Shown: in pieces, positions 8,051-41,471 of the stretch
Layout: every line of letters begins with the position of its first letter
Numbering within the stretch: position 1 is the first letter of the stretch
Assembly (NCBI GenBank): GCA_026770705.1
Contig: JANJGN010000052.1
Coordinates: 2,418,001 to 2,482,000, forward strand
From: Isurus oxyrinchus
Taxonomy: Eukaryota
Length of the DNA stretch: 64,000 nucleotides
Direction of reading: 5' to 3'
Made by a program: the position numbers and the translations under genes
The notes under the pieces: model-generated
Told to the model about the DNA's origin: nothing
What the model saw: the letters and a program-made list of their open reading frames with translations, nothing else
Databases searched by the model: none

Positions 8051-8090
8051 ATGGTCGGGAAATCTTACTTCCTCCTGTCACTTCTCCAAG
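8051..8090 (+). CDS. Gene A leader exon (MVGKSYFLLSLLQ-)
   Basis: Acceptor ttcacag|8011; ATG 8051; CAAG|gtaat. Confidence 0.8.
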
Positions 8091-8794: not shown

Positions 8795-9171
8795 TTGGAC
8801 TGTCACAAGAGTGGAAAGGCGACACTCCACGAGAGGTGGCAGCGCAGGAAGGTTCCTGTGTACAGATTCCATGTCATTACAGTTAATCATCACATTTCGT
8901 AGGGAGATCACGTGTCGGAATCTGGTTGAAAGGAATAGATGGGAACCCTACAGCCTAAATGGTCTATAGCCTTTCATTCCGAGGGTCACAGTCACAGGGA
9001 TCAAAGATTCCGCCATCGTACCCGGCTGTCTGGAGACCTGAAAGATGGCGACTGTTCCCTGATTATAAACAACATCAGACAGAAAGATGCAGGACCTTAT
9101 TTTTTTCAGAATAGAATTTGACAGCAGGAATAGTTAAAGCTACTATCCTGTAACCCAGCTTCACGTTTCTG
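8795..9171 (+). pseudogene. Gene A V-set exon, disabled
   Basis: In-frame TAA at 8884-8886 (TAT in paralogs); frameshift near 8930-8950; extra T in the poly-T before the essential Arg codon (~9100-9107); further TAA near 9135. Confidence 0.9.
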
Positions 9172-10030: not shown

Positions 10031-10327
10031 AATTCACAGATAAACCCATGATATTCCCTGCTGAAATTATTGCAGGAAAGCGTGTGGATGTAAGCTGCAC
10101 CTTCAATACAACGTGCAATGGAACAGCAGCACCTGTCTTAACCTGGGACACTCCCACTGACGTACCTGGATCAGTCTCAAACACTGTAACTCAGCATGGT
10201 GTCACTCTGACCTATACTTCTGTTCTGACCCTGATCCCATCACTCAAACACCACGGACACAATCTCAGCTGCAGAGTGAGATATCCATCTGTTTCATCGG
10301 AGCGGACCCTTGTACTAACTGTGCAAG
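10031..10327 (+). CDS. Gene A C2-set exon (domain 2), open frame
   Basis: ag|...FTDKPMIFPAEIIAGKRVDVSCTFNTTCNG...LSCRVRY...LVLTVQ G|gtaag; 297 nt; extra BC-loop Cys typical of Siglec domain 2. Confidence 0.8.
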
Positions 10328-10650
10328 GTAAGTACGGACACCCTTCATTCTACATCAGCACTCCCTCAGTGCTGACCCTCTGACAGTGCAGCCCGTTCTC
10401 AGTATCCACATTCTCATGCCTCTCAAAGTGCTTCACAGTCGATAGAAGTTAATTGATCTTTATTTGATTATTGCTGAATGAAGAGACAAGCTGTCTAAAC
10501 TTTACATCTCGCACACACCATTCTCCATGGCAACACCGCCACCTATCAGAGACCACTTGCCAACCAATCAGCACTCTCTTCCCATTAAGTATAAATTGTT
10601 GTTCACTTTCTGTCGGTAATCCTGTGAACGGGGTTCTTGATTCCCTCCCT

Positions 10651-10803
10651 GACATCTTAATGTCCCAATGAACAGAACAAGTTCCAACAATGAGCTGTGG
10701 TTTGTGATTCCTCACGTTACATCCAGGGACACTGGAGACTATCAGTGTGTGGCAGAGAATGAACATGGAGCAGTGGAGGGATTCATAACCATCACTGTGG
10801 AAC
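10651..10803 (+). pseudogene. Gene A: 3' half only of the 282-bp Ig exon
   Basis: HLNVPMNRTSSNNELW...YQCVAENEHGAVEGFITITVE|gtgagt present; acceptor and first Cys replaced by unrelated sequence. Confidence 0.85.
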
Positions 10804-12466: not shown

Positions 12467-12606
12467 ACAGTGGAGGAGAGATTCTGCACGTGATCCTGAT
12501 CCTGGGAATACGAGCTGTGATATTCCTTGTGGCTGTGGTTATCACTATCGCTGGAGTCTGTGTCTGGGAGAGACAAACAGTGAAAGGAAGTCGACAGACT
12601 GTTTGA
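12467..12606 (+). CDS. Gene A TM exon with intramembrane Arg: SGGEILHVILILGIRAVIFLVAVVITIAGVCVWERQTVKGSRQTV*
   Basis: Polypyrimidine acceptor ttctttctgtgtgttctctag|; phase-1 translation gives a ~29-aa hydrophobic stretch with CGA at 12511-12513 and stop TGA at 12604-12606; not in the ORF track. Confidence 0.8.
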
Positions 12607-12734
12607 AGCTTTGTACAGCAACAATCTGGTCAGTCAGTGCGGACAAATAACGTGTGATATTGGGTTAAGTTGTAATGAAACTGGTCAGTGTCCTGGTTAG
12701 AATCACCTTCGTATCAGAGAGGCATTCCAGCAGA

Positions 12735-13325
12735 CTGGGAGCCCATTCAGCCCATCGACTCCATGCTGTCTCTCTGTAGAGCAATCCAGTCAGTCCCATT
12801 CCCCCGCTCTATCCCCGTATCCCTGCAAGTTTATTTCCCCTCAAGTGTCCATCCAATTTCCTTTTGAAATCGTTCATCGTCTCCACTTCCACCATCCTCG
12901 TAGGCAGCGAGTTCCAGCTCATTACCACTCGCTGTGTAAAAAAGTTCCTCCTCACATCCCCCCTCTGCCCAAAACCTTCAATCTGTGTCCCCCAGTCCTT
13001 GTCCCATCAGCTAATGGCAACAGCTTCTCTTTGTCTACCTTATCTAAACCCATCATCATCTTGTACACCTCGATCAGATCCCCCCTCAATCTCCTTTGCT
13101 CCAAGGAGAACAACCCCAGCTTCTCCAACCCAACCTTGTAGCTAAAATCCCTCATCCCTGGACCCATTCTGCTCAATCTCCTCCCCACCCTCTCAAGGAC
13201 CCTCACTTCCTTCCCAAAGTGAGGAGACCAGAACTGGACACAATACTCTAGTTGTGACCTAACCAGAGCTTTATAAATGTTCAGCATAACCTCCCTGTGT
13301 TTGTACTCAATCCCTCGATTTATGA
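12735..13325 (-). mobile_element. CR1-like LINE 3' fragment
   Basis: YKALVRSQLEYCVQFWSPH...RRLRGDLIEVYKMM...TGGHRLKV, the CR1 RT C-terminus. Confidence 0.85.
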
Positions 13326-15949
13326 AAAGCTTATTCTTTCCATCAGCACAAACAGCAATTTCCAAGCGGACTCCCATCAGCAGACAGAGTGCAATGAAAC
13401 ATCGGCATGCCTGCTTCTTAATGTACGGAGAGAAACCTGGAACGAGAGATTCTCCTTCTTCTCCTCAGCAAGCTGAAACTTTTCCTTATACCTGGTGCTC
13501 CCCAGTCCTGCTGTGTGGACACGTCATAACCACGGCATTGTCTGGCTGTGTGCAGCCAACATGGTCGAATAGGAATGAACAGAAATGTGACATTGCTAAA
13601 CTCTGTTCTCTGATTGGAATGTGCTTTCTGAATGCTGCACCTTTTTCATGCTGCGATAGATTGTAAGAAGCATTTGGGTTATGAATAAAATTACATTGAT
13701 TTACTCAACTGATTAAAATGCTCAGCCTGTTCTGTAGATATTTATAGATTAAAATTCTTATTTTGAAGCCAAATTTTTGGCTCAAAGACATTACTTCATG
13801 TTGTTACATTTGTTCTATCATACGAATTCCTGTGCCCATCTTTATAATAGAAATTTCCCATGTAAACATGTCACATTGTAGTTTCACACTCCTGCCAGTG
13901 GTGGTGCCATTCCAAAGCTGTCTTGCTGCACCGACACAGTGAGAAATATTCTCGACGTGTACATGATGTTGTTGTTACAGGACATCAGGCGGAACCTTGG
14001 GCAGTGCCTAGAATGCACTTAAGACATTGCAGACCACGCTCAGAACTGACAGTGCAGCGTTTCCTCAATCCTGACCCTCGGTCGGTGCAGCACTGCCTCA
14101 TTACTGTCCCTCTGACAGTGCTGCACTACCTCATTATTGACCCTTTTCAAGTGCAGCACCCCGTCAGTACTGACCTTCTGACAGTGCAGCACTCCCTCAT
14201 GGATGACAATCTGACAGTGCAGCACTCCCTCAGTACTCACTCACCCACAGTGCAGCATTCCCTCAGTACTGATCCTCTGATACTGTATCCCTCCCTCACT
14301 ACTGACCTTCCGACAGTTCGGAACTCCATCGGTACACACCTTCTGACTGTTCAGCACTCCCACAGTGCTGACAAACTGACAGTGCAGCATTCCCTCAGTA
14401 GTGACCCTCTGACACTGTATCCCCCCCTCACGACTGACCTTCCGACAGTTCAGCACTCCCTCAGTACTGACGCTCCCACAGTGCAGCACTCCCTCAATTC
14501 TCACCCTCCCACAGTGCAGCCCTCCCTCTGTACACACCCTCCCACAGTGCAGCACTCCCTCAGTACTCCCCCTCCCACAGTGCAGCACTCTCTCAGTACT
14601 CCCCCTCCCACAGTGCAGCACTCCCTCAGTACTCAACCTCCCACAGTGCTGTGCGAGTTGTTTCAATCAAGACTGATGCCCAAAGAGGGAGGTTTCATTG
14701 CAAAATCATTGAAATCGGTGAAAATTATTTTTAGGCTTACGGGAACAAGACTTAGTTCCTCAAATCCTTTCTTTTGCAATAACACACAGTACAAGAATGT
14801 CTGTTTAAATAAATTCCAGTTAAACTTTGCTATGAAAGGATATCTCCTCACGCTCCGCTCTACCTCAGTACTAACCCTCCCACAGTCCGGCACACTCTCA
14901 TTACTGACCCTCCAACTGTGCGGAACTCACTCAGTACAGACCCTCCGACAGTGCAGCACTCCCACACTACTGACCCTCTAACAGTGCAGCCCTCCCACAT
15001 TACTGACCCTCTGACAGTGCAGCACTCCCTCATTACTGACCATCTGACAGTGCAGACCTCCCACATTACTGACCCTCTGACAGTGCAGCCCTCCCACATT
15101 ACTGACCCTCTGACAGTGCAGCCCTCCCACATTACTGTCCCTCTGACAGTGCAGCACTCCCTCAGTACTCACTCTCCCACAGTGCAGCACTCCCTCAGTA
15201 CTCACACTCCCACAGTGCAGCACTCCCTCAGTACTCACCCTCCCACTGTGCAGCTCTCCCTCAGTACTCACCCTCCCACAGTGCAGCACACCCTCAGTAC
15301 TCACCCTCCCACTGTGCTGTGCGAGTTGTTTCAATCAAGACTTTCGCCCAAAGAGGCAGGTTTCAATGCTAAATCATTGAAATCTGTGAAAATTATTTTT
15401 AGGCTTACGGGAACAAGACTTAGTTCCTCAAATCCTTTCTTTTGCAATAACACACAGTACAAGAATTGTGTTTAAATAAATTCCAGTTAAACTTTGCCAT
15501 GAAAGGATATCTCCTCACACTCCACTCTACCTCAGTACTAACCCTCCCACAGTCCAGCACCTCCTCAATACTGACCCTCCAACTGTGCGGAACTCACTCA
15601 GTACAGACCCTCCGACAGTTCAGCACTCCCACATTACTGACCCTCTGACAGTGCAGCCCTCCCACATTACTGACCCTCTGATAGTGCAGCCCTCCCACAG
15701 TACAGTGCCGCTGACAGTGCAGCACTCCCTCCGTAATGATAACAGGGATCGTTGAAATGTATCATAAGGCCAGAGACCTGTATTGGGGACGCTATCGCCT
15801 GAGTTTCAGCCTCCGAGGTGAGGAGGAGGAGTCTAATCCCACGGAGCCAATGGAGAAGCTTCATGACTACAGCTGCCCAAATATGAGCTGACAGATCATC
15901 ACATGGTAAACGTTTTGCTGAGAGCACAAAACATCCTCGATCTTCTCAC

Positions 15950-16548: not shown

Positions 16549-16588
16549 ATGATCGGGAAATCCTACTTCCTCCTGTCACTTCTCCAAG
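16549..16588 (+). CDS. Gene B leader exon (MIGKSYFLLSLLQ-)
   Basis: ATG 16549; CAAG|gtaat. Confidence 0.8.
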
Positions 16589-19500
16589 GTAATAACATCG
16601 TCAGCTCGGACAGTTTATGGCTAATAGTCTTTGTAAAAGATCATTCTTATTGAGTGTGATTGGGAACAGATTCAGCAGTGATCCAGTGTACAAACTCAAA
16701 CCAAGTCCCATTCACCCATCACCCCTGTGCTCACTGATATACACTGACTCCCTGTCTGACAGCAGAATTGGAGGAGAGCAGAGATCACAGAGGGTTTTAT
16801 GGTTGGAGGTGGTTACAGGGATTGGGAGTGTAGAGGGGGGATGGTGGGGTAAGAAATCGATGATGAGAATTTGAAATTTGAGTCATTGCTGGACTGGGAG
16901 CCAGTGTAGTTCAGCCAGTGACAGGGGAGCGATCGGCTGAATAGAGAATCAGGAACACCAACTGGGGGATGAGGTCTATCCTGATGCTGGGACTCGGATA
17001 ACAATACCCTGAAATTTTGTGTCTTTTGCTGATTTTGTCAGAATTTCCCATGAAGACAACACAGCAGCTCCTAGAATAGACAGGCTGTTCAGTGTCACAC
17101 TTCCTGTCCATTCTCACCTTGCTAGATACTTCAATAAGGGAGCAAGATAACTGAAAGAGAGAAGGAAGGTAAAGCTGTCTCTGTGTAAAACTGTCAAATA
17201 TTATGAGTTATCATGATTGTCTCTGATCTGCTGCAGAGTTTAAAGTTCTCAGAACATTAGCACTTTGCAGCTCAGAGAGAGACCATTGACTCACTGCCTG
17301 AAAGGCCGGTGGAAGCAGATTCAACAGGAACTTTCAGAAGGGGAACTGGATAAATACTTGAAGGGGACATTTTGCAGGGCTGTGGAGGAGAGAGCAGAGG
17401 TTAGAGTGGGACTAATTGGGCAGATCTTTCAAAGGCCCAGCACAGGCTCGATGGGCCAAATGGCATCCTTCTGTTCCGGATCATTCCACAATCTGATAAA
17501 TTAAGCCCCAGATCAGTAACTCTTCAGGCTCCTGCTGCAGGGATGGATCTTTGAGAAGGACAGGGAACAAGAGGTTCCTGGTATCATTTTCATATTTCTT
17601 GACAATTACATAAGTGTATAGATCTGTTGAATATTTGAGTCTCTAAAGCGTAGAGGTAATCTGCTGTTATGTCGAGATCTTGTGGTGGCAAAATTGTCTG
17701 GAGGTTTCTTTAATTGCTCACATTGATCTGTGGGATTGTCATTCTTTGATGTTGTCCCTGGTTTCAATTGACATTACACCCTTGATGCAATTGAGGAGGC
17801 TTTAAACTAATATAGCAGGGGATGGGATCCCGAGAGGAGGTTCAACAGAGAGAGATGCACAGCCAAAATTAGAAGGGAGCAAATGAACCTGGAAGGCATA
17901 GAAATTATTGGCCATTTAAGGCTCAAGATAGCGTGGTAAAGTTGGATTGTATTAATTTTAATGCAAGGAGTCTGACAGACTTGCATTCTCCTGCAGGTGT
18001 AATGTTGCTGCTCCCTTGAAACTGCCAATATTGTTGAATCTTTCTGCATATTTCAATGTTATGTTATGAACTGAGTTTATGGGATAGTTTCTGAGACTGG
18101 GACAGACATAAATCCATTGGCTTTCGGCCGGACCGGACAATCTTGGAAGTGGGCGGGGCCAGAAAATCCCACCCCTATGGGAACATTTTCAGTTTATTTG
18201 ATGTGCCCAGAGAGATCAATAAAGACCACAATCCACAATTTATTGGCAAGCCACATCAGGATATGTGTGAGAGGTGGAATATCGATCACCGCTCCTAGTC
18301 TCGTCGTATACATCATCGCCATTTCCTGGTTTGTCAGTCACCACATTTATATGTTCCTGATGGGATAGCGGATGGTCATTCTTATTGCTTGAAGGTTCCC
18401 CGTTGTGTAGGGTCTGTTTGGATCAGTGCACATCTCTTTGTAGCTGCATCAGCCTTTGCTCTAGTGCGCTGCCGCTGTCAATGGCCCTTTCTGCCACAAG
18501 CCTTGCAGGATTGGTGGAAAGCTGGGCATTTCCTTGGTGCCTGCAGAAGGCCCCACCTTCCACACGTCTCACTAGGTTTGGATGTTCTAGTGAGTGTGTC
18601 AACAATTGATGTTGTACTGAGGACCTGTAAGCTTCGTTGACCTGCGAGGATCACTTCGTATTTATGTCCATCCTTGAGTAACTCTTCAATGCTATAGGTT
18701 TTGGTCTTATCTAGCAGATCTTTCTGGAAGGCTTCCATGGGAGTGGATGTGATCACCAACTCAACAACTCTGTCTGCAGACTCTGTGTTTGAAATCACAG
18801 TGCGTACCCTTTTCTCTACATTGGCTGATGAAGTGGTCTATGGATTGTGTAGGCTGATGAAATGACATAAACTCTAGTTGATGAATATGGAGTTTAACCT
18901 GATTCTGAACCTGTCTTCCAATGTCGTCCATATCTATTGGGGATCCTTTCGCTCTTCTGCTGTTAATCCTGACGTGTTCAGCCTGTGTAGACCTTCATTC
19001 CCAATCGCGAGGTGAATTTTTATGGCTTGTTGGTCTGGTTCACTCACACCTGAATCAGGAAACCAGAGCTCTGTCCGCTGTTTAAACATTCTGAATTCAG
19101 ATAGTCGGTCAGCTACATCCCAGTTCAAACTGGGGAATTTAGTGGACATTCTGACAATATCAGAACAGATATACAAGGATATAAAGCTGGGAGACACCTG
19201 CAGCCAAACTGTGTGAGCTGTGTTCTGCTCACAGGCCAAAGTGAAACTTGGACTGGATGGTGTTACCATCCCAGCTGTGGTTACTACTGGGCAAGTCAGA
19301 TCCCAGTGTGGAACTCAGCTTGACAGGTCCTAACTTTTATTTTTTATTTAGGAATGTGGAGTGCAGCTACTGAACAGAGTCACAGGAGTCATCTGATGAA
19401 CTTCTAACAAAAGAATAAAACATTTATTAAACTAGGAAAGACAAACTATATGACATTACTCATTCACCCAGACCTATACCTTTACAGATTCATAAGTAGA

Positions 19501-22500
19501 ACACAAGTTACAATAACTATCTTATACTCTCATGTTCACACTAAGTACACAGTCGATGTAAACCAATAGACGACCTGTGGTCAGGGACACCACATTCTGA
19601 AAGCAAGTGGCAGAGCCCACTTGAACCAAATTCTATGTCTCATCTGTCCCCAGACGCTTGTTGCACTGTGAGCCAACCAGTCTCACTGAAAAGCTTCTTT
19701 CATATGAGGGTTTCCAATCTCCACTCTCCAAGAACTCACTTTGGAATCTTCTCCAACATGACACTTTCACTCAGGCACCTTCCACAAGGGTCCACTTTCA
19801 CTATTTCAAACTCTCCTTCCCATGTTCCTGCCCCCTGGATCGCCACGTGCATTCAGCCTTCCTTCCACGCCCTGTCTCTCCAATGCTCAGCCGTGTCAAT
19901 GGAACACCATGGCTTCACATGGCCGTAGTAATGAGTCACCAACCTGTGGTGTCTCCTAGGATCTTCTGGCTTCTCACAAGCCTATTTTGCTTTAGGCCTG
20001 TGTCCTGCTGCTTTCTCCCTTTATGCTTGAAGCCTTCTTCTGCTCCTCACTCTTAACTTCACTTAACAGGGCCTTTTCCAGATTTGACTAGAAGGTTTTC
20101 TTGGGCCCTTTCTCCTGTTCCACTCGATAGTTTTGACTTCTTCTTTACTTTGGGACTGACTATCTGTCCCGCTCCTTTGCTGCTTCTCCTGGCAACTCCT
20201 TTCAACAGAACTGAAAGTACTTTTCTGTTTTTTTCTGTCTCTGTGGGTCCTTCCCTCTGCATCACTGTTGCTAGGCAACAGCACAGTTTCTTATGCCTTG
20301 TATTTGTTTTGACTTCCCTTCAACAGTCATAAAACCTCAATGGAATGCTGGCTTCTTTTTAACTCAAGTTCCCCCTTTTCTCAACACCCAAATACAGAAA
20401 TACAAACTAAACTTGAACTTAAAGATAGACCTTTTGCCTAACACACACAAATACACATAGAACTTACTTAAGCGAACACCAGTTCCTAAAAATCACATGA
20501 CACACTTCCCCTCGAGTGATGTCATGCTGCTGTCCCTGAAAGGCATATTACAACAGTGTTATCACTTGGCAGGTGATGTGTGCCAGGCAGACCAAGTCCC
20601 TGAGAGAAACCTGGTCACACTATCATAATGATTTTGCAATTTGTATTTATTATGAGATGTGTGCACTTAATTCAGAAGCAATAACTCCACCAATACCTTT
20701 AGAGATTTAAAACAATAAATTAACATATTTGTCATCAAAATAAAAGATTTCAAGCACATACATAATGACAATGACTGCTATCATAACTCCTAAAATTCCT
20801 AATTAACCTGACTCCCAGTTACAGTCCCTTTAAGGCAACAGACCAAAAATAGATGTTAGATTTAAAACAAAATCAGCAAGTTAACCCAATGCCCCGGACA
20901 GTGGAATTCCAAATGCATTGTCCCCAACTTCAGTTCTGTTGGAGAGCAGGCTTGTGCACAAACAGGGTCCTGAGGACCATGAACCAATGTAGAATGAACT
21001 TTTCCGCTTTTGTGTCCAGGATTCTCTTCCATCTGGTGTGATACCTTGTGGAGTTCATTGTGTGTCCTGTAGATGCTCCACACTGCAGCCACTGTGCCCC
21101 AGTGATGGAGGGGGTGGATATTGAGTCTAGTGGATCAACAAAACATCCAGAGTTAAATATTGATATTTCTCTCCCCAGTTGGATTGTCACAAGAGTGGAA
21201 AGGTGACACTCCACGAGAGGTGACAGCGCAGGAAGGTTCGTGTGTACAGATTCCATGTCATTACAGTTATCCATCAGATTTGGTAAAGAAACCACAGGTC
21301 GGAATCTGGAAAATGAGAAGATACATACAGAACAAATGGTCTAAATGGTCTATAGCCTTTCACTCCAAGGGTCACAGTCGCGAGTTATCACAGTTCCACC
21401 ATCGGACCCGGCTGTCTGGAGACCTGAAAGATGGCGACTGTTCCCTGATTATAAACAACATCAGACGGGAAGATGCAGGATCTTATTTTTTCACGATAAA
21501 ATTTGGCAATGGTCCGAGACATAACGTTTCCCCTGAAACCCAGCTTCACGTTTCTGGTAAGTGCTGTGTTATAATTACTCACCAATTCACATCCAACACT
21601 CAATGGGAAATAATAGTGTTTGATTTGCTTGTTTTTTGGCCGTGTTAACCAGCGTCACTATTTTTAATGATTTGTCTATTTCTGCTCCCAGATCCATGAG
21701 CTTATTGTGTGTGATTGAATCCACATCATAGCTGTAACGTAAACCGAGCTGAGGGGTGATGACACCTCCCCCCTGAGTGAAGTGTCTCCTCCCCACTACA
21801 CCTTCCACCCCTCACACTGTCCGTGTAAACCCCCGTCCCATCTCCAGCCTCTCTTTCCCCTCCAAAGTCCTTGAACGTGTTTCCATCTCCCGAATCCGGT
21901 TCCATCTTTCCCGGAACTCCATGTTTGAATCCCTCCAATCAGGTTCCCACCCCAGCCACTGTGCTGAAACAGCTCTTATCAAGGTCACAAATGGCATCCT
22001 GTGTGACTGTGACAAAGGTCAACTTTCCCTCCTCGTCCTTCTCGATCTGTCTGCAGCCTTTGACACGCTCGACCACACCATCCTCCTCCAACCCCTCTCC
22101 ACTGTCGTCCAGCTGGGTGGGACTGCTCTCCCCTGGCTCCATTCTTATCCATCTCATCGTAGCCAGAGAATCACTTGCAATGGCTTTGCAGCATCATCTG
22201 AACAGTATTAGTTTTCACCTGTCCACTGAGGATCCCCAGCTCTACCTCACCACCACCTCTCTCGACTCCTCCACTGCTGCTAAATTATCAGGCTGCTTAT
22301 CCGACATCCAGTACTGGATGGGCAGAAATTCCCTCCAATTAAATATTGGAAAGACTGAAGCCATTGTCTTCATTCCTCGATCCAAACTCTGTTCCCTCGC
22401 TACCAACTCCATTCCTCTCCCTGGCAGCTCTCTGAGATTGAAGCCAATCTGTTCACAGCTTTGTTGTCCCATTTGATCCTGAGATGAGCTTCCGGCCTCA

Positions 22501-25500
22501 TATCTGCGCCCTCACTAACACTGTCTATTTCCACCTCCATAACGTCGTACGACTTCACCCTGTCTCAGCTCATCTGCTGCTGAAACCCTCATCCACGCCT
22601 TCATTACCTCCAGACTCGACTGTTCCAACACATGCTCTACACTCCATAAACTTGAGGCCATCCAAAACTGCTGACCACGTCCTTACTCACACCAAGTCCC
22701 GTTCCCTTATCACCCGCTCTGCTCGATGACCGAGACTGGCTCCTGGTCAAGCAAAGTCTCAATGTCCAAATTTTTGAATATTTTTCCTCCCTATTACAGT
22801 AATCTCCTCCTTTATCTTCATCCACGGCAACATTCCCTATCGCAGGAGCCTCCTCCAGTCCCTACAACCCTCTCTATCTCAGGAGCCTCCTCCAGTCCCT
22901 ACAACCCTCCCTATCTCAGGAGCCTCCTCCAGTCCCTACAACCCTCCCTATCTCAGGAGACTCCTCCAGTCCCTACAACCCTCCTATCTCAGTACTCTCT
23001 TCCAATCCCGAAAACCATTCCTATCACTGCAAACTCCTCCGGACCCAACACCCCTCCCTATCTCTTTAACCTCCTCAAGCCCCGATAACCCTCGCGATAT
23101 TTGTAGCCTCCTCCAGTCCTAACAACCTCCACTATCTCTGCAAACTCCTCCAGACCGAATACCTCTCCCTATCTCTGTAAGCTGGTCCATCTCTTACAAC
23201 CCTTCATATTTCTGTAACCTCCTCCAGCCCACTACAACCCTCCCTATCTCTGTAACCTCCTCCAGTCCCTAAGAGTTTCCTTCATCTCTGTAACTCCTCC
23301 AGCCATTATAACCCTCCCTATCTCTGTAGCCTCCCTCAGCCCCAGCCACACTCCATATCTATGTAACCTCGTCCTGCCCCTACAACCCTCCCTATCTCTG
23401 TAACCCCATCCTGCCCCAAAAACTCCCCCATCTCTGTAAACTCCTCCAGTCCCTGCAACCTTCCCTACCTCTGAAACCTCCACCAGCCTTTCCAACCCTC
23501 CCTACCTCTGCAATCCGTCCAGCCCCTACAACTCTTCCTATCCCTGTAAACTCCTCCTGCCCCTAAAACCGTCTCTGCCCTTGCAGCCTCCTCCAGTCCC
23601 TTCACGTTCCCCATCTCCATAAACTCCTCAAATCCCTATAGCCCTCCCTATCTCTGCAACCTCCTCCAGGTCCTACCACCCTCCCTATCTGCGTAACCTC
23701 CTCCAGTATCTACAGCCCTCCCTATCTCTGTTACCTCCTCCAGCCCCCACAAACCTCCCTATCTGTGTAACCTCCTCCAGCCCCTGATGGAAGGTGGGTC
23801 GAGCGGGTCAGTCACTTGCATGTTTATTCTGCAGCTTTAATATTTTAAGAAGGTAAGAATGTAGGAACATAAGAAATAGGGACAGGAGCAGGCCATTCGG
23901 CCCCTCCAGCCTGCTCTCACTGATCTGGTTGCGGCCTTAACTCCATTTTCCTGCCTGTCCCCCAAACCCTTGACTCCCTTGTCGATCAAAAACCTGCCTC
24001 ACTCAGCCTTGAGTCTATTCAATGGCCCAGCCTCCACTGCTCTCTGGGGAAGAGAATTCCACAGGCTAGCGCCCCTCTGAGAGAGGAAATTCCTCCTCAT
24101 CTCAGTCTTAGATGGGAGAGCCCTCATTCCGAAACTGTGCTCCCTGGTTCTAGATTCCCCCACGAGGGGGAAACATCCTCCCAGCATCCACCCTGTCAAG
24201 CCCCCTCGGAATCGGATATGTTTCAATAAGGTCACCCCTCATTCTTCTAAACTCCAATGGATACAGGCCCAACCTGCTCACCATTTCCTCACAGGACAAA
24301 CCCTTTAATCCCAGGAATCAGCCCAGTGAACCTCCTCTGAACTGCCTCCAATGCAACTCTATCCCTCCCTAAGTAAGGAGACCAGAACTGTACACACTGC
24401 TCCTGATACAATCTCACCAACGCCCTGTGCAGCTGCTGCAAGACTTCCCTCCTTTTATACCCCATCCCTTTGCAATAAAGGCCAACATTCCACTTGCCTT
24501 CCTCATTCCGTGGTGTTCCTGAATGCTGACTTTCTGTGATTCATGTACAAGGACACCCAGATCCCTCTGTACTGCATTCTGCAGCCTGTCTCCATTTAAA
24601 TAATATCCTGTTTTTCTATTCTTCCTGCCAAAATAATTTGTTGCCATTCTCCTCAGTATTGACCATCCCCCCAATTCAGCCTCATCAGTAAATTTTGAGT
24701 CTAGTGGATCCACAAACCATCCAGAGTTAAATATTGAGATTTCTCTCCCCAGATAAACCCTCACAAGAGTGGAAAGGTGACAGTCCACGAGAGGTGACAG
24801 CACAGGAAGGTTCGTGTGTACAGATTCCATGTCATTACAGTTATCCATTGTGTCCGGAAAACCAACCGCGAGGTGGAGTCTGGTTTAATAATGAGAAACA
24901 GATTCCCTGGGCTCCCATTGCCTTTCACTCCAAGGATCACAGTCACGAGTTACCACGGTTCCACCATCGGACCCGGCTGTCTGGAGACCTGAAAGATGGC
25001 GACTGTTCCCTGATTATAAACAACATCAGACGGGAAGATGCAGGACCTTATTTTTTCAGAATAGAATTTGACAATGGTCCGAGCCATAACTATTACCCTG
25101 TAACCCAGCTTCACGTTTCTGGTAAGTGCTGTGTTATAATTACTCACCAATTCACATTCAACACTCAATGGGAAATAACACAAACTGTGACGTTTACATA
25201 TTAACACAAAACACAGCTAATTATAACACGCTGTCTGATTCTCAATAACCTGGTGATAGCTTCCAGTTCAGTCCTAAAACAACCTCTAATACTCTCTTTA
25301 ATATCAATGATTAAATGTATTGACTGTGTCCATCAGTGTTATCAGGTTATCCACTTACATCAATCTCCCTAATCCTGTTTAAAATTCTTACATATCAACA
25401 AAAGAAAGATTTGCATTTCTATAGCGCCTTTCACCACCTCTGGACATCGCAAATGGATTCACAACCATTGAAATAATTCTTGAAATGTAGCCCTTGTTGT

Positions 25501-28500
25501 AATATAGGAAACACAGCAGCCAATTTGTGCACAGGAAGCTCCCAGAAACAGCAATGTGATCAATAACCTGATCATCTGCTTTAAATGCCGGTTCAGTGAT
25601 TGGTTCAAATGGATTCTCTCCTGCTGGGAACTGGATAGAATTTAAATCTGGCAGATTTCGGAGAAAGTAACAAGCCAGTGTGTCAGGAACTGTGAGCTGA
25701 TCCCCCACCCTCACCCGGGATTGTCAATTCAATTGTCTCAAAGTGGAAGTGAATTCATCTGAGTGACAGAAACTCCACTAAGTCTGAAAATAGGAAAGTC
25801 TCTCCTGATCGTTGTAATCTCTCAGTTCTGATATCATCCTTGTAAAAGTGCTTTTTCTTGTGGGACTGTGATTTCTATTTGAACTGATGCTTCACGTTAT
25901 ATTTCTCTAAAAGGATCCATTCTCTGTCTGTTAGATTTCACAGATAAACCCATGATATTCCCTGCTGAAATTATTGCAGGGAAGCGTGTGGATGTAAGCT
26001 GCACCTTCAACACAACGTGCAATGGAACAGCAGCACCTGTCTTAACCTGGGACACTCCCACTGACGTACCTGGATCAGTCTCAAACACTGTAACTCAGCA
26101 TGGTGTCACTCTGACCTATACTTCTGTTCTGACCCTGATCCCATCACTCAAACACCACGGACACACTCTCAGCTGCAGAGTGAGATATCCATCTGTTTCA
26201 TCGGAGCGGACCCTCGTATTAACTGTACAAGGTAAGTACTGAAACCCTTGATTCTATATTAGCTGTAATAGGTTACAATGTGCAGAGCAAGATCCCACAA
26301 ACATCACTGGGTTGAAGACAAAACAGGTCCTTTTTTATTAGCGATATTGACCAGGGAGAGCTCTTCCTGTATTGAGCCTTGGGATTGTTTATGCCTACCT
26401 GATAGGGCAGAGGGGGCCAATGTTGAACTTAAAAGACAATATAGGATAATATAAATATTGTCTTCATTGATGTCAAAGATTTTGGGGGAGATGTAGTATA
26501 AAAGTTTAATATTAACAATGTAAATAGATAGTATTTATCATCAGTTACTCAAGGTCACATGAGAATAGAACACGGAGAGAGATAGTTCTATAGATACCTA
26601 GGTACATAGAAACTAGGAGCAGGATTAGGACATTCAGCCCTTCAAGCCTTCTCCGCCATTCAATATGATCATGGCTGACCCTCTATCTCAAAGCCTTATT
26701 CCCGCTTTCTCTCCGTACCCTTTGATGCCCCTAATATCAAAATATTTATCAGTTTCTTTCTTGAATACACTCAGTGACCCGGCCTCCACAGCCTCTGTGA
26801 TGGAGAATTCCACAGATTGACCACCCTCTGAGTGAAGAAATGTTTCCCTATCTCAGTCCAAAATGGCCTGCCCTGTATCCTGAGATTGTGGCTCTTGGTT
26901 TTAGACTCCCCAACCAAGGGATGCATCCTCCCTCCATCCAGTCTGTCTATCTCTGTTAGAATTTCTTACGTTTATTCAGGTCTCCTCTCATTCTTCTAAA
27001 CTCTAGTGAATACAGACCCAGTCGTACCAATTCTCCTCATACGACAGTCCTGCCTCCCCTGGTATCAGCCTAGAGAACCTTCTCTGCACTCTCTCGACGG
27101 CAAGTCTATCCTTTTTTAGGGAGGGAGACCAAAACGGCACGTAGTACCCCATGTGCAGTCTCACCAAGACCTTGTATAACTGCAGTAAGACATCCCTACT
27201 CCTGAACACAAATCCTCTTGCAATGAAGGACAACATACCATTTGCCTTCCGAATTACTTGCTGCACCTGCCTGTTTACTTTCATTGGCTAGTGCACAAGG
27301 ACACCCAGATCCCTTTATACATCCACATTTCCCATTATATCACCATTTAAATAATACTCTGCCTTTCTGTTTTTCACACCAAAGCCTACAATGTCACATT
27401 CATCCACATCATCTGCCATGTGTTTGCCCACACACACAACTTGTCTAAATCGCCTTGAAGCCTCTTTACATCCTCCTCACAGCTCACACCCTTACCCAGC
27501 GTTGTGTCATCAGAAAACCTGGAAATATTGCACTTGGCTCCTTCACCCAAGTCATTTAAATATATCGTGAATAGTTAGGTCCCAAGCACGGATCGCTGTG
27601 GTACACCACTAGTCACCGCCTGCCACTCAGATAAAGACTAATTTATTCTGACCCTCTGTTTCCTGTCTGTCGACCAATTCTCAATCCATGCCAGTAAATT
27701 ACCCCCAATCCCATGGGCTTTAATGTTGCGCACTAGCCTCATGTAGGACCTTATCAAAAGCCTTCTTGAAATCTAAAAACACCACATCCACTGGTTATCC
27801 CTTATCTATTCCACAAGTTACATCCTCAAAATCTCCAGTAGATTAGTTAAGCATGATTTTCCTTTCATTAACCCATGCTGACTTTGTCTAATCCCATTAA
27901 TGCTTTCCAAGCGTTCCGTTAGCACACCTTATATAATAGGCTCTAGCGTTTTCCCCATGTTAGACTAACTGGTCTGTAATTCTCTGATTTTTCTCTCCCT
28001 TCTATTTTAAATAGTGGAGTTACAATTGCCACCCTCGAATCTATAGGAACTGCTCCAGAGCCTATAGAATTTTGGAGGATGACCACCAGTGCTTCCAATA
28101 TTTCCAGGGTCACTTCCGTTAGTCTCCGGGATGTAGATTTTCAGGCCCTGGGGACTGTTCAACCTTTAACCCATTAATTTCTCCAGCTCCATTTTTTAAA
28201 ACTAATCCTGATTATCTTCAATTCCTCCCTCTCACTAGACACTTGGTTCCCTAACATTCCTGGGAAATTATTTGTGTCCTCTTTTGTGAAGACAGAACCA
28301 AAATATATGTTCAGTTCTTCTGCCATTTCTTTGTTTCTCATTAGAATTTCCCCCATTTCTGACTGCAAGGAACCTACATCGGTCACTGCTAATCTTTCTC
28401 TCTTCACATATTTATAGAAGCTTTTACAGTTGGTTTTTACGTTCCCTGCAAGTTTAATCCCATGTTCCATTTTCCCCTTCTTGATCAATCTTTTTGTCCA

Positions 28501-31500
28501 CTTTTGCTGAATTCTAAACTGCTCCCAATCCTCAGCATTGCTGCTTCCCCTGGCAATTTTATGTCTCCTCTCTGGATCTAATACTATCCCTAATTTCTTT
28601 TGTAAGCCCTGGTTGAGCACCATTTCCTGATTTATTTTTACGCCAGACAGAAATGGATAATTGTTGTAGCAAATGCTTCAGCCTTATCTTTTGCCCTGAT
28701 GTGCTGGGCTCCCCCTTCATTGAGAATGGGGATATTTGTGGATTCCCCTCCTCCAGTGAGTTAATTGTCCGTTACCATTGGATACGAGCATTAGTGGACT
28801 GTATTAGACCATTATCGAAAATGAAAGCTGGACTCCAGTATGGCCTCACTATGATGGATATGACAACTCGATTTCCAGAGACCATCCCTTTAGGAACAAT
28901 TACAGCTAAAGTAGTAATAGGGAAGTTAACCCAATTTTTTACCCATTATGGATTACCGCTGGAGATCCAGTCAGATCAAGGTTCCATCTCTATGTCTTAA
29001 AATTTTCCGAACATAATGAGTAATTTGGGTATAAAACAGTTAAAGTCCACAGCATATCATCCATAGACACAGGGATCTTTAGAGAGGGACCAACAAACCC
29101 TCAAAACAATGATTGAAGCTATTGTCATGATCTCCCCATGACTGGGACAAAGGACTGGATTTCTTGTATTTCCCACATGAGATTCACCAACTGAATCGGC
29201 AGGTTTTAGTCTTTTTGGAATAACTTATGGACACGAGATAAGAGGCTGTTTGAAATACATCAAAGAAAGATATTCCGGACAGAGGGATGAATCCTCTATT
29301 TCAGATGATGTGTCCATGTTTCAGGAACGGCTCATGGGAGCCTCCAAAGTGGCACAAGAACATCTTATAGTTTCTCAAACAGAAATGAAGGAATGGGGCA
29401 GACAGGCAAGCTGTGACCCGAACATCACAACCAGGGGGATGACGTGTTAGTATCATTGCCTTGGCAGGGGGAGCCTCTGAAAGCGCGGTTCAGTGGTCTC
29501 CACAAGGTAATTAGGAGGGTTGGTCAAGTAAATTATTTGATAGACACCCCAGATTGTAGAATAAAGAATCGGCTGTGACACATCAATATGTTAAAACGAT
29601 ACCATCGTAGGGAGGGAGGTAAAAAGGAGCAGGTATTTCATTTCCAACCAGATTCTGCATAGATTACAGAAAGGTTAATGCAGCAATAAAACCAGATTCC
29701 TACCCAATCCCCCGTTTAGAAGATGGTATTGACGAGGTTGGCAGTGCCATGTTCCTTACTGAGATAAATTTGTTGGTAGTGGGGGGTGTTCGTGACCATC
29801 AGTGTGGAAGGGTTAGGTTTACAGGTTACACAGACCAGACACACACCAACAGACACACACACACATGTAAGCACGCACATTCACACGCACACGCGCACAC
29901 ACACAACACACACACGCACACACACACACGCACACACACACACACACACACACGTAAGCACGCACATNNNNNNNNNNNNNNNNNNNNNNNNNNNNNNNNN
30001 NNNNNNNNNNNNNNNNNNNNNNNNNNNNNNNNNNNNNNNNNNNNNNNNNNNNNNNNNNNNNNNNNNNNNNNNNNNNNNNNNNNNNNNNNNNNNNNNNNNN
30101 NNNNNNNNNNNNNNNNNNNNNNNNNNNNNNNNNNNNNNNNNNNNNNNNNNNNNNNNNNNNNNNNNNNNNNNNNNNNNNNNNNNNNNNNNNNNNNNNNNNN
30201 NNNNNNNNNNNNNNNNNNNNNNNCACTCAGTGCTGCACTGGAGTCTCGGTGTCAGCTCCGATTCTGTGTTGAAGGAAGGTAAACTCCGGATCAACAAGAC
30301 CCTGAATTGGATGGAGCAACCTCCTTAACAGAGAATTGTAGATTTACCCCTCAGTGCTCCATCGATCAAATATAATTCATTGCCTGTCAAGCCCTTGGGG
30401 ACATCCTGAGGATGTGAAAGGCAGTTTCTTTAAATCTGGATGGGCAGCGTCTCTGGTGGGAGAATGCTCCTGCAGTGTGACAGTTTACATAGGCAGTGCC
30501 CATTGTAAATGTGACATAGGAACTTATCTTGAGAGAAGGTGCCTAGAAATGCACACAGGCATCAGTTACAGCGAGATGATACAGGAAGTTTTGCTGTGCA
30601 CTGTGTTTGCTCACATTAAAATCTTTATATATTTTTAGATGCACCACAGAATCTCTCAATTACTTCTCTTGATATGATTAACGCTTCATCGATCAATATA
30701 ATTGCGGGGAATTCTGCAGTGATAATCTGCTCTGTCGAGAGCTTCCCAGCTTCTAACCTGACGTGGCGACATCTTAATGTCCCAATGAACAGAACAAGTT
30801 CCAACAATGAGCTGTGGTTGGTGATTCCTCACGTTACATCCAGGGACACTGGAGATTATCAGTGTGTGGCAGAGAATGAACATGGAGCAGTGGAGGGGTT
30901 CATAACCATCACTGTGGAATGTGAGTGTGGAGATACATTTGTTTGTTTGTTGTCTCCGTGGTCTCCGTGGAGCCATTGGGATCGTGTTGTTTTTAATCCA
31001 GTTTTCTTCAATCCTCGCTCAGTCCACGTTATCCACACATCCAATTTTTCCTCTCCCTTTCTGTTTTTGGTCTCAGTTTCTCCTTCAATGGTTGTGAGGA
31101 CAAGGCTGTCAGGTCTTCGTTTCCAATCTCCGTACTTGACGACCTTTCTCTCTCTAACTGTCCTGAACAACCCTTTTAATGGCTGAACGTCTCCTCTTGA
31201 TCTAAGCCACTCATTGGTCTTTCTGTCCATCCAGCTGATTCTGAGCATCTGGCAGCATCTGTGGAGAGAAAGACAGGGTTAGCGTTTGGAGTCCGTAAGA
31301 CTCCTCTTCAGAGCTAAAGGGAAGTAGACATGTGGTGAAATATATCCTGTCTAAGGGGGGGCGATGGGACAGGTGGAGCTGGATAGAAAACCAGCGATAG
31401 GTGGAGGCAATGGAGAGATTGTGAAAAATGTCATAAACAAAAGGTCAAAGGGTTGTTAACAGTGGTGGTATTGGATAAAGGAGGTGCTAATGGTGACATT

Positions 31501-34500
31501 AAGCAGAGTGTGATAATGGGCGGACCAGGGTAAGCACTCTGGAAAGAGACAGATGGCCCTCGTGGGGGTGTGGCAGGGGGGAGGGGACGGTGGAGGGAAT
31601 AAAGATCGAAAATAGACTAAAATCTGCGGATAAAACAATCAATAAAAATGGAAATGAATTTCAAATAATAATAATAAAAATAAGTGGAAAACAGTTAACA
31701 AAAAAAACAATTAAAATGAATACATTAAAAAAGGGCTCAAAAAGCAGTGAAGATCGAGGAGAGAGTTCATGATCTGAAATTGTTGAATTCAATATTCAGT
31801 CGGGAAGGCTGTAAAGTGCCAGGTCGGAAGATGAGGTGTTGTTCCTCCAGTTTGTGTTGGGCTTCACTGGAACAATGCAGCAGGCCAAGGACGGACATGT
31901 GGGCATGAGAGCAGGGTGGGGTGTTAAAATGGCAAGCGACAGGGAGGTCTAGGTCGTTCTTGCAGACAGACTGAAGGTGTTCATCAGAGCGATCACCCAG
32001 TCTGTGTTTGGTGTCTCCAATGTAGAGGAGACCACATTGGGAGCATTGAATGCAGTAGATTAAATTGAAGGAAGTCTGCGTGAAGCGCTGCTTCACCTGG
32101 AAGGAGTGTTTGGGTCATTGGACAGTGAGGGGGGAGGAAGTAAAGGGGCAGGTGTTGCACCTTCTGTAAATACATGGGAAGATGTCATCGGAGAGGGTTG
32201 AGGTGCTAGGGGTGATGGAGGAGTGGACCAGGGTGTCCTGGAGGGAATGATCCCTGTGGAATGCCAACGGGGTGGGGGTGAAGGGAAGATGCTTTTGATG
32301 GTGGTCAGATTTTGTCCAAAGGAGGTGAGAAATGAGGGAGGGAATTCCAGAGGTTAGGATCCAGGCAGCTGAAGGCACGGCTGCCAATGGTGGAGCGATA
32401 GGAATCGGGGGAAGGTCAAGAGGCTGGAATTGGAGGTGCATCGAGATCTCGGAGGGTTGTAGAGGCTGGAGGAGTTTACAGAGATAAGGAAGGTTGTAGG
32501 GGCTGGAGGAGGTTACAGAGATAGGGAGGGTTGTAGGGGCTGGAGGAGGTTACAGAGATAGGGAGTGTTGTAGGGGCTGGATGAGGTTACAGAGATAGTG
32601 AGTGTTGAAGGGTCTGGAGGAGGTTACAGAGATAGGGAGGGTTGTAGAGGCTGGAGGAGTTTACAGAGATAGGGAGGGTTGTGGGGGCTGGAGGAGGTAA
32701 CAGAGTTAGGGAGGGTTGTGGGGGCTGGAGGAGGTTACAGAGATAGAGAGGGTTGTGGGGGCTGGAGGAGGTTACATAGATAGGGAGGGGTGTAGGGATG
32801 GAAGGTGGTTGCGGAGTTAGCGAGTTTTATAGGGGCTGTAGGAGGTTACAGGGATAGGGACGGTTGTGGGGGTTGGAGGAGGTTACAGAGATAGGGAGGG
32901 TTATAGGTGCTGAAGGAGGTAACAGAGATAGGAAGGGTTATAGGGGCTGGAGGAGGTAACAGAGATAGGGAGGGGGTAAGGAGGGATTTGAAACGATGTG
33001 AATTTTAAAATTGTGGCATTGTCGGACCGGGAGCCAGTGTAGCTCAGTGACCAACAGGGAGTAATATGTGAACAGGACTCGGTGTGAGTTAGGACATGGG
33101 GACAGCAGAGTTTAGGATGAGCTGATGTTTATGGAGAGTGGAAGATGGGAAGTCGGGCAGGAGAGTGTTGGGATAGTTGAGTGCAGAGGTAACAAAGGCA
33201 GGAATGAGTGTTTCAGTGTGAAGATTCCATCTTACGCTCTAACTTTGCTATGACGTTGTCTCATTGTTGTCCTTACCTCCTCAGATAAGCCGGAGATTTC
33301 CCAGCAGTCGGAGTGCACTCGGAGATCAGAGGGGGTCACCTGCGTCTGTGTGACCACCTCCAACCCACCGGGAGACCTCACCTGGCACCTGCCCAGTGCC
33401 AACATCAGTGGTAACCAAACACACGGAGATTTTGTGTCGTGGCAGGTCAGAGATGGGCATCTGGTGACTGGTTCCCTCACCCTGATGAGACCTCAGGATG
33501 AGGGGGGAGTGATTGCATCCTGCTCGGTTCAAAACCCACATGGGGAAGCCATGTTCAAGGTGTATCTGTGGGTCAAAGGTGAGAGACTCGCTCAGGATCG
33601 ATCTCCACTCAGCTGGATTGATCCCTAAACTCGAGAATTCCCTCCCTCAACCTCTCCACCTCTCTCTCTACCTCCTCTAAGATGCTGTGTACAACTTCCC
33701 CCTTTGACCAAGCTTTGAATCACCTGACCTCATGTGACAATGGCAACACTTGGTCAAATTGGAGCCAGGCCGTTCAGGGGGTGATGTCAGGAAGCACTTC
33801 TTCACACAAAGGGGAGTGGAAATCTGGAACCCTCTCCCCCAGATAAGCTGCTTCATTGGGTGCAAGACAGAAAGCTTTGACAAAATGTCCTTTCTCAGCA
33901 ATACTCAGGTTCTCCTCCCAAACGACGAAATATTATATATAAACATTACATAGATTACATCGAGAAACATTATATATAAATATTACATAGATTACATCGA
34001 GAAATATTATATATAAATATTACATAGATTACATTGATAAATATTATATATAAATATTACATAGATTACATCGAGAAAAATTATATATAAATGTTACATA
34101 TATTACATTGCTAAATATTATACATTAATGTTATAGGGATCACATTGATAAATATATATAAATGTTAAATTGATTACATCGAAATGCAAGACTCGATAAC
34201 CAATGAAGCAGTTTCGAAGTGAGCTCACTGTTGTCATGTAGGAAACGCAACAGTTGATTTGTACACAGCAAGATCCCACAAACAACAGCGTGAAATTGAG
34301 GTGATAATTGATTATTTTAGTGAGGTTATTTGATACATATATATATAGAAATTACATATATAATGTGGGTCACTAATGACCCTTAAGGGAGGGAAACCTG
34401 TCCATTTTAACAGGTCTGGGTGTATATGTGACTCCAGTCTCAGACACCATCATGGTTAACTCTTACCTGCCCTCTGAACTGGTCTCCCAGTTTGGGACAA

Positions 34501-37063: not shown

Positions 37064-38779
37064 GTGTGATACGGAGAGAGGGGGTGAGGAGGTTTGTGGG
37101 TGGGGGCAGGGATTGTGATTCCTTGGAACATGAGACAACCCACTGGGGGAGAGGGGGAGAGAGGGAGGAAGGGACTGAATGGATCTGTGGTTGGTGTGGT
37201 TTGGAATGAAATGTTTCCCCAGAGACGACTTGATGCTGAGTCATTGGGGACAGAGATTCAGTGTCTCTCTCTCTCCCAGTCTGTCTCTCTATCTCTCTCT
37301 CCTTCTCTGTCTGTCTCTCTCTGTCTCTCTCCCTCTGCATCTCTGTCTATCTCTCTCCTCCTTTAACATGGTCCTTATTAACTGGTTTTCTTAACTCAGC
37401 TTTTTGTCACCTGTCCCTTATATCTCATTATTTGTCTCAGAGATGGATTTATATGTGGTTAACAATCCCCTGAAGAGTTTTGGGACAGTGTGCTACTTTA
37501 AGTGTGCTATATAAATGCAAGTTGTTGTAGTAACGTTGATCTGCCTTGATTCAGAATGGAAACACGGAGAATCCTTTGACAGGGCGTGTGTGCAACAGGC
37601 TCGCAATAAATGCATTGCACGGCAACAACTAAGCATGTCCGTTGATGCTGATGCATCCCAGTCCTGCTGTGTGGACACATCACAACCGAGGGACTGCCTG
37701 ACTGCGTGCAGCTAACATGGCAGAGTAGTAATTAGCAGAAATGTGACGTCACTGAACTTTGTTAACATTTCAGAATGTGCTTTCTGAATTCTGCAACTTG
37801 TTTATTCTGTGATAGATTAAAAGAAGCTTTTGCATTTTCTATAATATTACATTTATTGTCACAAGGGATTGAAATGCCCAGACAACACTGTACAGATATA
37901 TTTTCATTAAACAGCTTACTCTGGGACAACCCCCCTGCTCCAATCTGTTAATTCATGTCATTGCATTTCCCCACCAAATTATGTAAATTCATGTGTCCAC
38001 ATTTATCATGAAAATTTCCCATGTAAACATGTCACACTGTACTTACACTCTCTTGCCAGTGGTGGTGCTGTAAGCACACCAGATACTTTCTCAGCGATTG
38101 CAGGACCTCTCCGAGTTGTCTTTACAATATTATTAAGATACAGGGAATGGGGACAATCTTCACACTGTGGTTACGATGTTGTTAAGACAGATAGCTGGTG
38201 AAACCTCCCCCCCCCCACTCCCGAGGCAGAATCTGTTCTGGCTGTGAGACCCCCACACTTATCCCATGCCCCCTGTTCATTTCTCCATCCCTGCTCTAAC
38301 TTAGCGCTTTTGGACATGACGGGCGGGGCCCACAGGAAAGTGTGGAAGGGCTGCCCATCGCAGCTGGAACAAGGATCCTGGCAGGTCTCCCAGGACAGAA
38401 TGGCGGAGTGGGGGAGGGGGAGCAGTGGGGTCAATATCCACACCCTCCAGGAGGGCAGCATCATTCATCAGGGAAACGCAGGGCCGAATGCCCCTCCACC
38501 CGGAACGCTGTCCACCATGATTTCAACGTCCTTCACCGGAAGCCTTTTGAAGGTTGCCGTGGCCAGATTTCAATCGGCCGCTTGGTCACCATTGGTCCAA
38601 GCAGTCACTAAGCACCCACCTCTGCCCGCCCCTTTGAACTCATTCTGCAGCCACATCTTATGCTGGCAGGCCTTAATTAGCCCGGCCGCGTAAAATCGCA
38701 GCGCGGAGCTGATCGCGGGCAATAGTCGGATTCCTCACCGCCCCCAGCCCTGTGCACCCCTGCCGAGGGCAAAAATCTG

Positions 38780-41431: not shown

Positions 41432-41471
41432 ATGATTCGGAAATCTTACTTCCTCCTGTCACTTCTCCAAG
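41432..41471 (+). CDS. Gene C leader exon (MIRKSYFLLSLLQ-)
   Basis: accATGatt; CAAG|gtaat. Confidence 0.8.

Follow-up and report, generated by a model that had tools for sequence, protein, structure and literature searches.

The closest described counterparts of the genes treated here are the paired Siglecs of humans. As passages of PMC4042635 and PMC13358205 describe them, Siglec-5/14 and Siglec-11/16 combine Siglec V-set and C2-set domains, a near-identical V domain on an ITIM-tailed and a short-tailed gene, and a basic residue in the transmembrane (TM) segment, and this layout is shared by the shark genes. Two such pairs are given for humans in those passages, in contrast to roughly 200 + 220 loci with tandem V exons in the shark. 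Also in contrast to the paired Siglecs, the arginine-bearing TM exon of the shark (Arg-TM exon) is not homologous to the inhibitory TM exon, and its geometry appears to be that of FcR-gamma/zeta rather than DAP12 partners.

A second parallel is the NxxR-type TM exon, which passages of PMC6557307, PMC2413239 and PMC4536121 place in LILRA, Fc-alpha-RI, NKp46, GPVI and OSCAR and in FCRL, CD2/SLAM and LRC receptors of Xenopus. Like this exon, the shark exon encodes TM segment and tail together, has an arginine at the outer and an acidic residue at the inner end, and occurs in several receptor families. Unlike it, the shark exon has no Asn at -3 (ILGIR), and its sharing, which includes Siglecs, was traced at the DNA level into the intron. 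The chicken CHIR cluster, as reported in part of PMC1458963 (103 loci, 41 pseudogenes), likewise consists of block-duplicated activating and inhibitory Ig receptors with many pseudogenes; it differs in its LRC-type rather than Siglec domains and comprises about a quarter of the loci counted in the shark. The same exon in the same frame is contained in RefSeq shark models named Siglec-7/12/13/14/16-like, CD33-, CD22-, sialoadhesin-like and SLAM family member 9-like; these names are automatic, and none gives an activating function or the shared exon. No account of shark activating Siglecs or of an Arg-TM cluster was found in the literature outside subscription journals and supplements, and the available text of a whale shark paper mentions Siglecs a single time, within a list.

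The window analysed here comprises 64,000 nucleotides of contig C52 of the 4.98-Gb genome of Isurus oxyrinchus. We consider it probable that its gene A belongs to a shark Siglec-like receptor family whose membrane arginine couples to FcR-gamma or CD3-zeta and which would be activating, the copy in the window itself most likely being dead. The observed part of this reading comprises the exon, its frame and joints, the copy numbers, the interleaving, the near-identical V domains and both adaptor exons.

Table 1. Coordinates of gene A, its introns and its neighbours in the window
Feature	Position	Strand	Basis or remark
Gene A signal-peptide exon (MVGKSYFLLSLLQ), intact	8051..8090	+	matches N-terminus of catshark models P0033-P0035
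Gene A Siglec V-set exon, broken	8795..9171	+	alignment to V exons of B and C
Gene A C2-set exon, intact	10031..10327	+	Pfam C2-set_2, E 4.5e-9; donor joined to TM exon
3' half of second C2 exon, skipped	10651..10802	+	joint 10327 to 12467 passes over it
Intron and acceptor homologous to pre-TM intron of CD2/SLAM-like C21 gene	12088..12466	+	DNA alignment
TM and short-tail exon	12467..12628	+	coding 12467-12606, then 22 nt of 3'UTR up to donor
Membrane Arg codon (CGA)	12511-12513	+	kept in 86/89 copies, Gln in 3
GGAAGT, supposed decayed donor	12586..12591	+	coding (Gly-Ser); not seen used
Intron within 3'UTR, GT..AG	12629..13346	+	X5 joint (1/4 runs); GT kept in 79/89 copies
3'UTR exon, end approximate	13347..13760	+	X5 contig to 13736; AATAAA at 13684
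Gene B: SP-V-V-C2-C2-C2-neutral TM-tail with TEYAQI, inhibitory-type	16549..37064	+	
Gene C: SP-V-C2-(C2)n-neutral TM-tail with LFYANI and TKYAQI, inhibitory-type	41432..58393	+	

The transmembrane exon and its transcripts

The exon follows an AG acceptor at 12465-12466, is entered in phase 1 and is read from 12469. Its translation, (D)SGGEILHVILILGI-R-AVIFLVAVVITIAGVCVW-ERQTVKGSRQTV, ends at a TGA (12604-12606) and reads (D)SGGEILHVILILGIRAVIFLVAVVITIAGVCVWERQTVKGSRQTV as a whole, so that one helix and a 12-residue tail lacking tyrosine are encoded together. The best Kyte-Doolittle 19-mer reaches 2.95 and contains the arginine, as does the best 21-residue window (likewise 2.95), which bears out the preliminary description in placing the arginine inside the helix. 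That description had also held the exon to be unlike the TM exons of genes B and C. The TM exon of C is 99% identical to that of B, and no homology to the latter was detected: the alignment of the A and B exons scored 36 against a shuffle mean of 35.7 at the DNA level (957 of 2000 shuffles reached 36) and 27 against 21.1 at the protein level (212 of 2000 reached 27). With flanks included the score was 114 against 95.5, a weak excess reached by 10 of 300 single-base shuffles. In a comparison with solved structures, the TM peptide had no match at E up to 10.

Transcript contigs of four runs (X1, X3, X5 and X21, out of 24 listed) were compared over 9950-13950, X1 and X3 being one sample and X5 a second study. 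The runs had been labelled RNA by guess, and the spliced joints argue for this label. A GT..AG joint from 10327 to 12467, linking the C2 exon to the TM exon, occurs in X1, X3 and X5 and not in X21; the hidden charged-TM exon proposed from the letters is therefore real, and its acceptor is used in three of the four runs. One 850-nt contig of X5 contains the C2 exon and the TM exon to 12628 and continues with 13347-13736. The proposed span 12467..12606 accordingly holds as the coding part, but the exon itself ends at 12628. As the donor at 12629 lies 22 nt behind the stop, the exon at 13347 is 3'UTR, spliced in one of the four runs; the contigs of X1 and X3 read through this donor. Because the contigs differ from the window copy at 10107 and 10262, they show the use of the exon by the family and not by the window copy. 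Stop codons close before the last junction escape decay under the 50-55-nt rule, by which the present stop, 22 nt before the donor, would escape as well.

For comparison, a set of 89 copies was formed from the window copy and 88 others fetched with 8 kb of upstream DNA (39 closest DNA matches and 49 further copies on C52); exon ends in this set were projected from BLAST matches, and single calls can be wrong. It was proposed earlier that GGAAGT at 12586 is a decayed gtaagt donor, so that a decayed internal exon would once have led from there to a longer coding tail at 13347. An exon is indeed present at 13347 and lacks an ITIM, as had been said, but it is no coding tail, since the spliced contig joins it behind the stop. 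A search for paralogous exons with an intact donor returned not one copy with an exact GTAAGT (among the first 100 of 194 copies listed, 96 have GGAAGT and 4 GCAAGT). In favour of the proposal, GCAAGT, a possible GC donor, stands at the site in 10 of the 89 copies. Part of the exon 13347..13760 shares homology with the 3' ends of genes B and C, and this resemblance to inhibitory genes also speaks for a lost tail. Against it, the sole observed joint uses 12629, behind the stop; a join from 12586 would add just 16 residues without a tyrosine; and the stop-ended tail recurs in models of three shark orders: those of white shark, catshark and bamboo shark conserve the G-S or G-N codons at the donor-like site and stop soon after. 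A decayed donor is thus largely refuted, and we regard it as extremely improbable.

Two other candidate structures were rejected. An RNA joint from 12876 to 13565 is non-canonical and equals a genomic deletion found in 20 of the 89 copies. Catshark model P0035 pointed to a cryptic exon at about 12226-12392, but the frame of this stretch stops after 31 codons in 50 of 58 motif-bearing copies, and no joint to it was found among the best 15 of 56 RNA joints. The deletion 12876-13565 removes the 3'UTR acceptor in the 20 paralogs, and the 3'UTR donor region is replaced in 9 further copies, so that several 3'UTR layouts exist in the family.

Siglec-like genes of the window and their paralogs

Gene A spans 8051-13760 in the window. 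Its only V exon is broken by two stops (TAA at 8884 and 9135) and two frameshifts (a 2-nt loss near 8930 and an extra T near 9100), for which reason gene A is most likely a pseudogene in the window; function belongs to the intact paralogs, not to this copy. Skipping of the V exon would keep the frame and yield a V-less protein. The lesion of the half C2 exon (10651-10802) is old, being common to 78 of the 89 copies. A locus 1 Mb away (L031, G000:C52:1386094-1396093) is 99.98% identical to gene A over 6050 nt, lesions included, and may be either a very recent duplication or an assembly duplicate.

Siglecs are distinguished by extra cysteines in the V and first C2 domains, which form intra-sheet and inter-domain bonds. 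In the shark family, the V Cys-x-x-x-x-Cys and GDCSL align with Siglec-5 and the C2 domain holds CTFNTTC, so that this hallmark is present at the sequence level. Siglec-5 is also the best solved match of the V domain (E 2.2e-15), with YFFRxE aligned to YFFRVE, and the V exon of gene C is recognised by the Pfam families V-set and Ig_CD22. The order of an N-terminal V-set and a following C2-set domain is found in the family, the V of the window copy being broken. Among 76 intact V exons upstream of Arg-TM exons, 70 keep the essential F-strand arginine, 4 lack it and 2 were not parsed. Sialic-acid binding by the family is predicted.

Together with the conserved basic TM residue, the short tail without ITIM or tyrosine gives the genes the make-up of activating Siglec-14/15/16, and the activating-type reading of the preliminary description is sustained by this real coding exon and by its partnership with the ITIM genes B and C. 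Near-identical ligand domains on a nearby inhibitory gene mark paired receptors, and here the V exons of gene B match V exons of Arg-TM genes at 94% and 95% identity, and that of gene C does so at 88%. Among themselves, the 58 distinct intact V domains are on average 81% identical, compared with 95% for the C2 domains.

In the tail of gene B (36815-37064), the proximal motif is altered to LLYANP ahead of the distal TEYAQI; the tail of gene C (58145-58393) has the ITIM-like LFYANI and the distal TKYAQI. The first V exon of gene B (21179-21556) has Thr for the essential arginine, which its second V keeps. Gene C contains seven intact near-identical C2 exons and two remnants (46671-55362) and no match to the membrane-proximal C2 exon of gene B. 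Another gene of the family, oriented head to head with gene A, exits the window leftwards; its signal exon lies at 460-499 on the minus strand.

A search of the genome with the TM exon gave 229 DNA and 237 protein candidates, and 99 of 150 scored candidates are identical across all 45 residues. By exact short patterns, at least 194 Arg-TM exons and 219 neutral TM exons of ITIM-type genes are present, totals across contigs that uncollapsed haplotypes could inflate. Contig C52 alone carries 57 Arg-TM and 66 neutral TM exons, which are interleaved beyond chance (80 runs against 62.2 expected, p 0.0013). If the reading is true, activating paired Siglecs would be placed in cartilaginous fish at hundreds of loci, as a paired glycan-receptor system far beyond any found in the literature searched.

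The acceptor AG is present in all 89 copies, the arginine in 86 (Gln in 3) and the UTR donor GT in 79. All V and C2 exons appear intact in 33 copies, as do 22 of 59 copies on C52, counts that are upper bounds, with the signal exon often beyond the 8 kb; three genes, L037, L068 and L149, are complete in view (SP-V-C2-TM). Some V exons are intact in 6 copies and V is broken in 16; the remainder have no V (15), no C2 (10), a broken C2 (8) or another defect (1). Overall, 50 of the 89 have no usable V+C2 within 8 kb. One V-less group (L038, L042, L044, L045, L047, L049, L050, L058, L115, L121, L126, L134 and L151) has one or two signal exons, C2 and Arg-TM, most members with the GCAAGT variant, and could represent a C2-only receptor or a dead branch. 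Three or more tandem V exons about 2.3 kb apart precede the activating-type exon at L034, L060, L064, L065, L140, L141, L144 and L146, and catshark model P0035 has at least five V exons.

The membrane arginine and its candidate adaptor

That paralogs might lack the frame or the arginine had been named as grounds for dropping the exon; the figures above speak otherwise, in a test that is weak because the copies are young and the genomes slow to change. No sign of purifying selection was found among the 89 paralogs: exon diversity is 0.0087 against 0.0097 in the adjacent intron, and 11 of 15 variable exon sites are non-synonymous or nonsense, about the neutral ratio. Compared with catshark, the exon is identical at 38 of 45 positions and the adjoining translated intron at 39 of 54 (p 0.22), so that conservation across species is weak proof of selection.

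Among annotated proteins, models of the great white shark come closest (91-96%). Protein searches with the exon returned 9, 10 and, with a profile, 20 proteins; all 20 profile matches are shark Ig receptors, from Carcharodon, Scyliorhinus, Mustelus, Chiloscyllium, Hemiscyllium and Rhincodon. We take these six genera to represent three orders. Searches with so short a query are weak, and none of the proteins came from rays, chimaeras or bony vertebrates. The exon is present in 32 of 35 proteins compared, always in the same frame and with the arginine kept; it is missing from P0019, P0020 and P0028, the last of which is an unrelated repeat. Eighteen apolar residues follow the arginine, and the first charged residue stands at R+19 in 30 of 32 (Glu in 28, Lys in 2; other in 2); TM segment, short tail and the acidic inner-end residue thus share one exon. 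In other sharks, Gln, His, Asp or Ser can be found 5-8 positions ahead of the arginine, and since polar residues are tolerated there, the helix probably starts near ILGI, with the arginine N-terminal.

Part of this evidence bears on whether the arginine recruits anything at all. It might lie at the outer membrane edge without a partner. In that case the short-tailed proteins would act in adhesion or as decoys that do not signal, and most copies would have arisen as by-products of segmental duplication and be drifting. The selection results just given, the breakage of more than half of the copies and the intact V+C2 of the 3 copies in 89 with Gln all speak for such decoys, yet ILGIRA-I-F does not vary among the 7 diverged rows compared, which include CD2/SLAM-like genes. 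Moreover, CpG changes affected the arginine codon once (3 copies), as against 16, 6 and 2 copies at the other CpGs of the exon, the copies not being independent, and both the Siglec and the CD2/SLAM-like loci pair the exon with a tyrosine-motif neighbour, which is a paired-receptor layout. We consider decoys very unlikely for the family. The three Arg-to-Gln copies (L040, L051 and L059), in which V and C2 are intact and the second C2 exon is complete, are possible non-signalling decoys.

Siglec-14 uses an arginine in the membrane, and coupling to DAP12 was proposed from this likeness, DAP10 being a further candidate. Named activating Siglecs use DAP12 according to passages of PMC13358205, PMC6288428 and PMC4042635, and in Isurus oxyrinchus ten mostly hydrophobic residues precede the arginine. 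Hydropathy of the window copy alone puts the arginine at place 7-8 of the best window, which falls in the range of 7-12 that a passage of PMC1440944 gives for the basic residue of DAP12 partners and counts against FcR-gamma. The same passage reports that DAP12 prefers Lys and that a K-to-R change cut KIR assembly to 15%, and in part of PMC8102735 macaque KIRs with an N-terminal arginine use FcR-gamma, not DAP12. The 18 apolar residues behind the arginine also argue against DAP12, so that a DAP12- or DAP10-coupled receptor seems unlikely. The only candidate from a genome search for the DAP10 family is a weak match (E 0.41) that contains a stop and is attributed to chance; this result does not imply that the genome lacks DAP12.

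Partners of Fc-gamma have an N-terminal arginine (Arg 3 of Fc-alpha-RI against Asp 6 of Fc-gamma, in PMC1440944), and the relevant parts of PMC13107469 and PMC8102735 agree with this rule of position. The genome contains one zeta-like and two FcR-gamma-like TM exons (PF11628), with the first basic residue at D+16 in both kinds. Their assignment as zeta-like and FcR-gamma-like is our own, made from characteristic features. The two FcR-gamma-like exons (L101 and L102) are near-identical and lie on separate small contigs, as two genes or two haplotypes. Set against R+19, D+16 gives an offset of 3, as between Arg 3 and Asp 6, which fits FcR-gamma/zeta better than DAP12; to judge from this placement, the adaptor is rather probably FcR-gamma or zeta. 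On the other side, the NxxR motif of FcR-gamma partners is absent, Leu standing at -3 in all rows. A predicted structure of the TM peptide with two FcR-gamma-like peptides, folded without controls, scored 0.14 (mark 0.34) and counts neither for nor against this coupling.

The exon, spliced onto the C2 exon, is the last coding exon of a large Siglec-like receptor family in sharks. Under FcR-gamma/zeta coupling, the arginine in its helix would bind the two aspartates of an FcR-gamma or CD3-zeta dimer, and ligand binding would activate the cell through this partner chain. These would be the first FcR-gamma-coupled Siglecs, with hypervariable V domains. The questions then raised are which adaptor the oldest activating Siglecs used and whether pathogen sialic-acid mimicry has driven the expansion of paired receptors ever since jawed vertebrates arose.

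An exon and intron shared with a CD2/SLAM-like gene

The ectodomains ahead of the exon vary among sharks, from CD33-, CD22- and sialoadhesin-like to 'SLAM family member 9-like' in Mustelus and S. canicula. In Isurus oxyrinchus itself, a non-Siglec gene with the same exon lies on a 118-Mb contig (C21:89.44-89.45 Mb). Its TM exon is identical at 79 of 105 nt in the core (pS 0.34, pN 0.22). A stop interrupts the V exon of this gene, and its helix contains three polar residues. The label CD2/SLAM-like is that of the sources; model P0027, compared with solved structures, is nearest to CEA/CEACAM1, CD276 and, weakly, CD2, and is not a Siglec.

The similarity extends into the intron, with 224 of 330 letters (68%) matching over 12088-12435 and a score of 153, where the highest of 500 shuffles reached 43. 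The same comparison gave 26-28 for the intron preceding the gene B TM exon and 34 for DNA behind the stop. A dispersed repeat is unsupported as the source of the match: with the C21 stretch as query, 229 candidates were obtained, as many as with the window exon, and the best 40 of these 229 were C21 itself and Siglec copies, the other 39 all on Siglec contigs. As shared intron DNA cannot arise by convergence, exon and upstream intron were likely copied once between the Siglec cluster and the CD2/SLAM-like gene, likely before the split of catsharks and the Isurus oxyrinchus lineage, pointing to exon shuffling.

A wider reading for galeomorph sharks is that an ancient portable Arg-TM exon with its intron moved between CD33-, CD22- and sialoadhesin-like Siglecs and a CD2/SLAM-like gene, making each an FcR-gamma/zeta-coupled activating receptor, with a paired Siglec array of more than 400 loci in Isurus oxyrinchus. 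We judge the chances of this to be about even; if it is correct, the exon would be a concrete case, at the DNA level, of an activation module transferred between receptor families.

The C21 pair (L166-L170, G000:C21:89408057-89447640) places a neutral-TM neighbour with TIYDEI beside the Arg-TM gene, and a third C21 fragment lies near 89455951. Many further CD2/SLAM-like C2 exons (35-37% to P0029) were found on small contigs (L155-L164), suggesting another expanded family.
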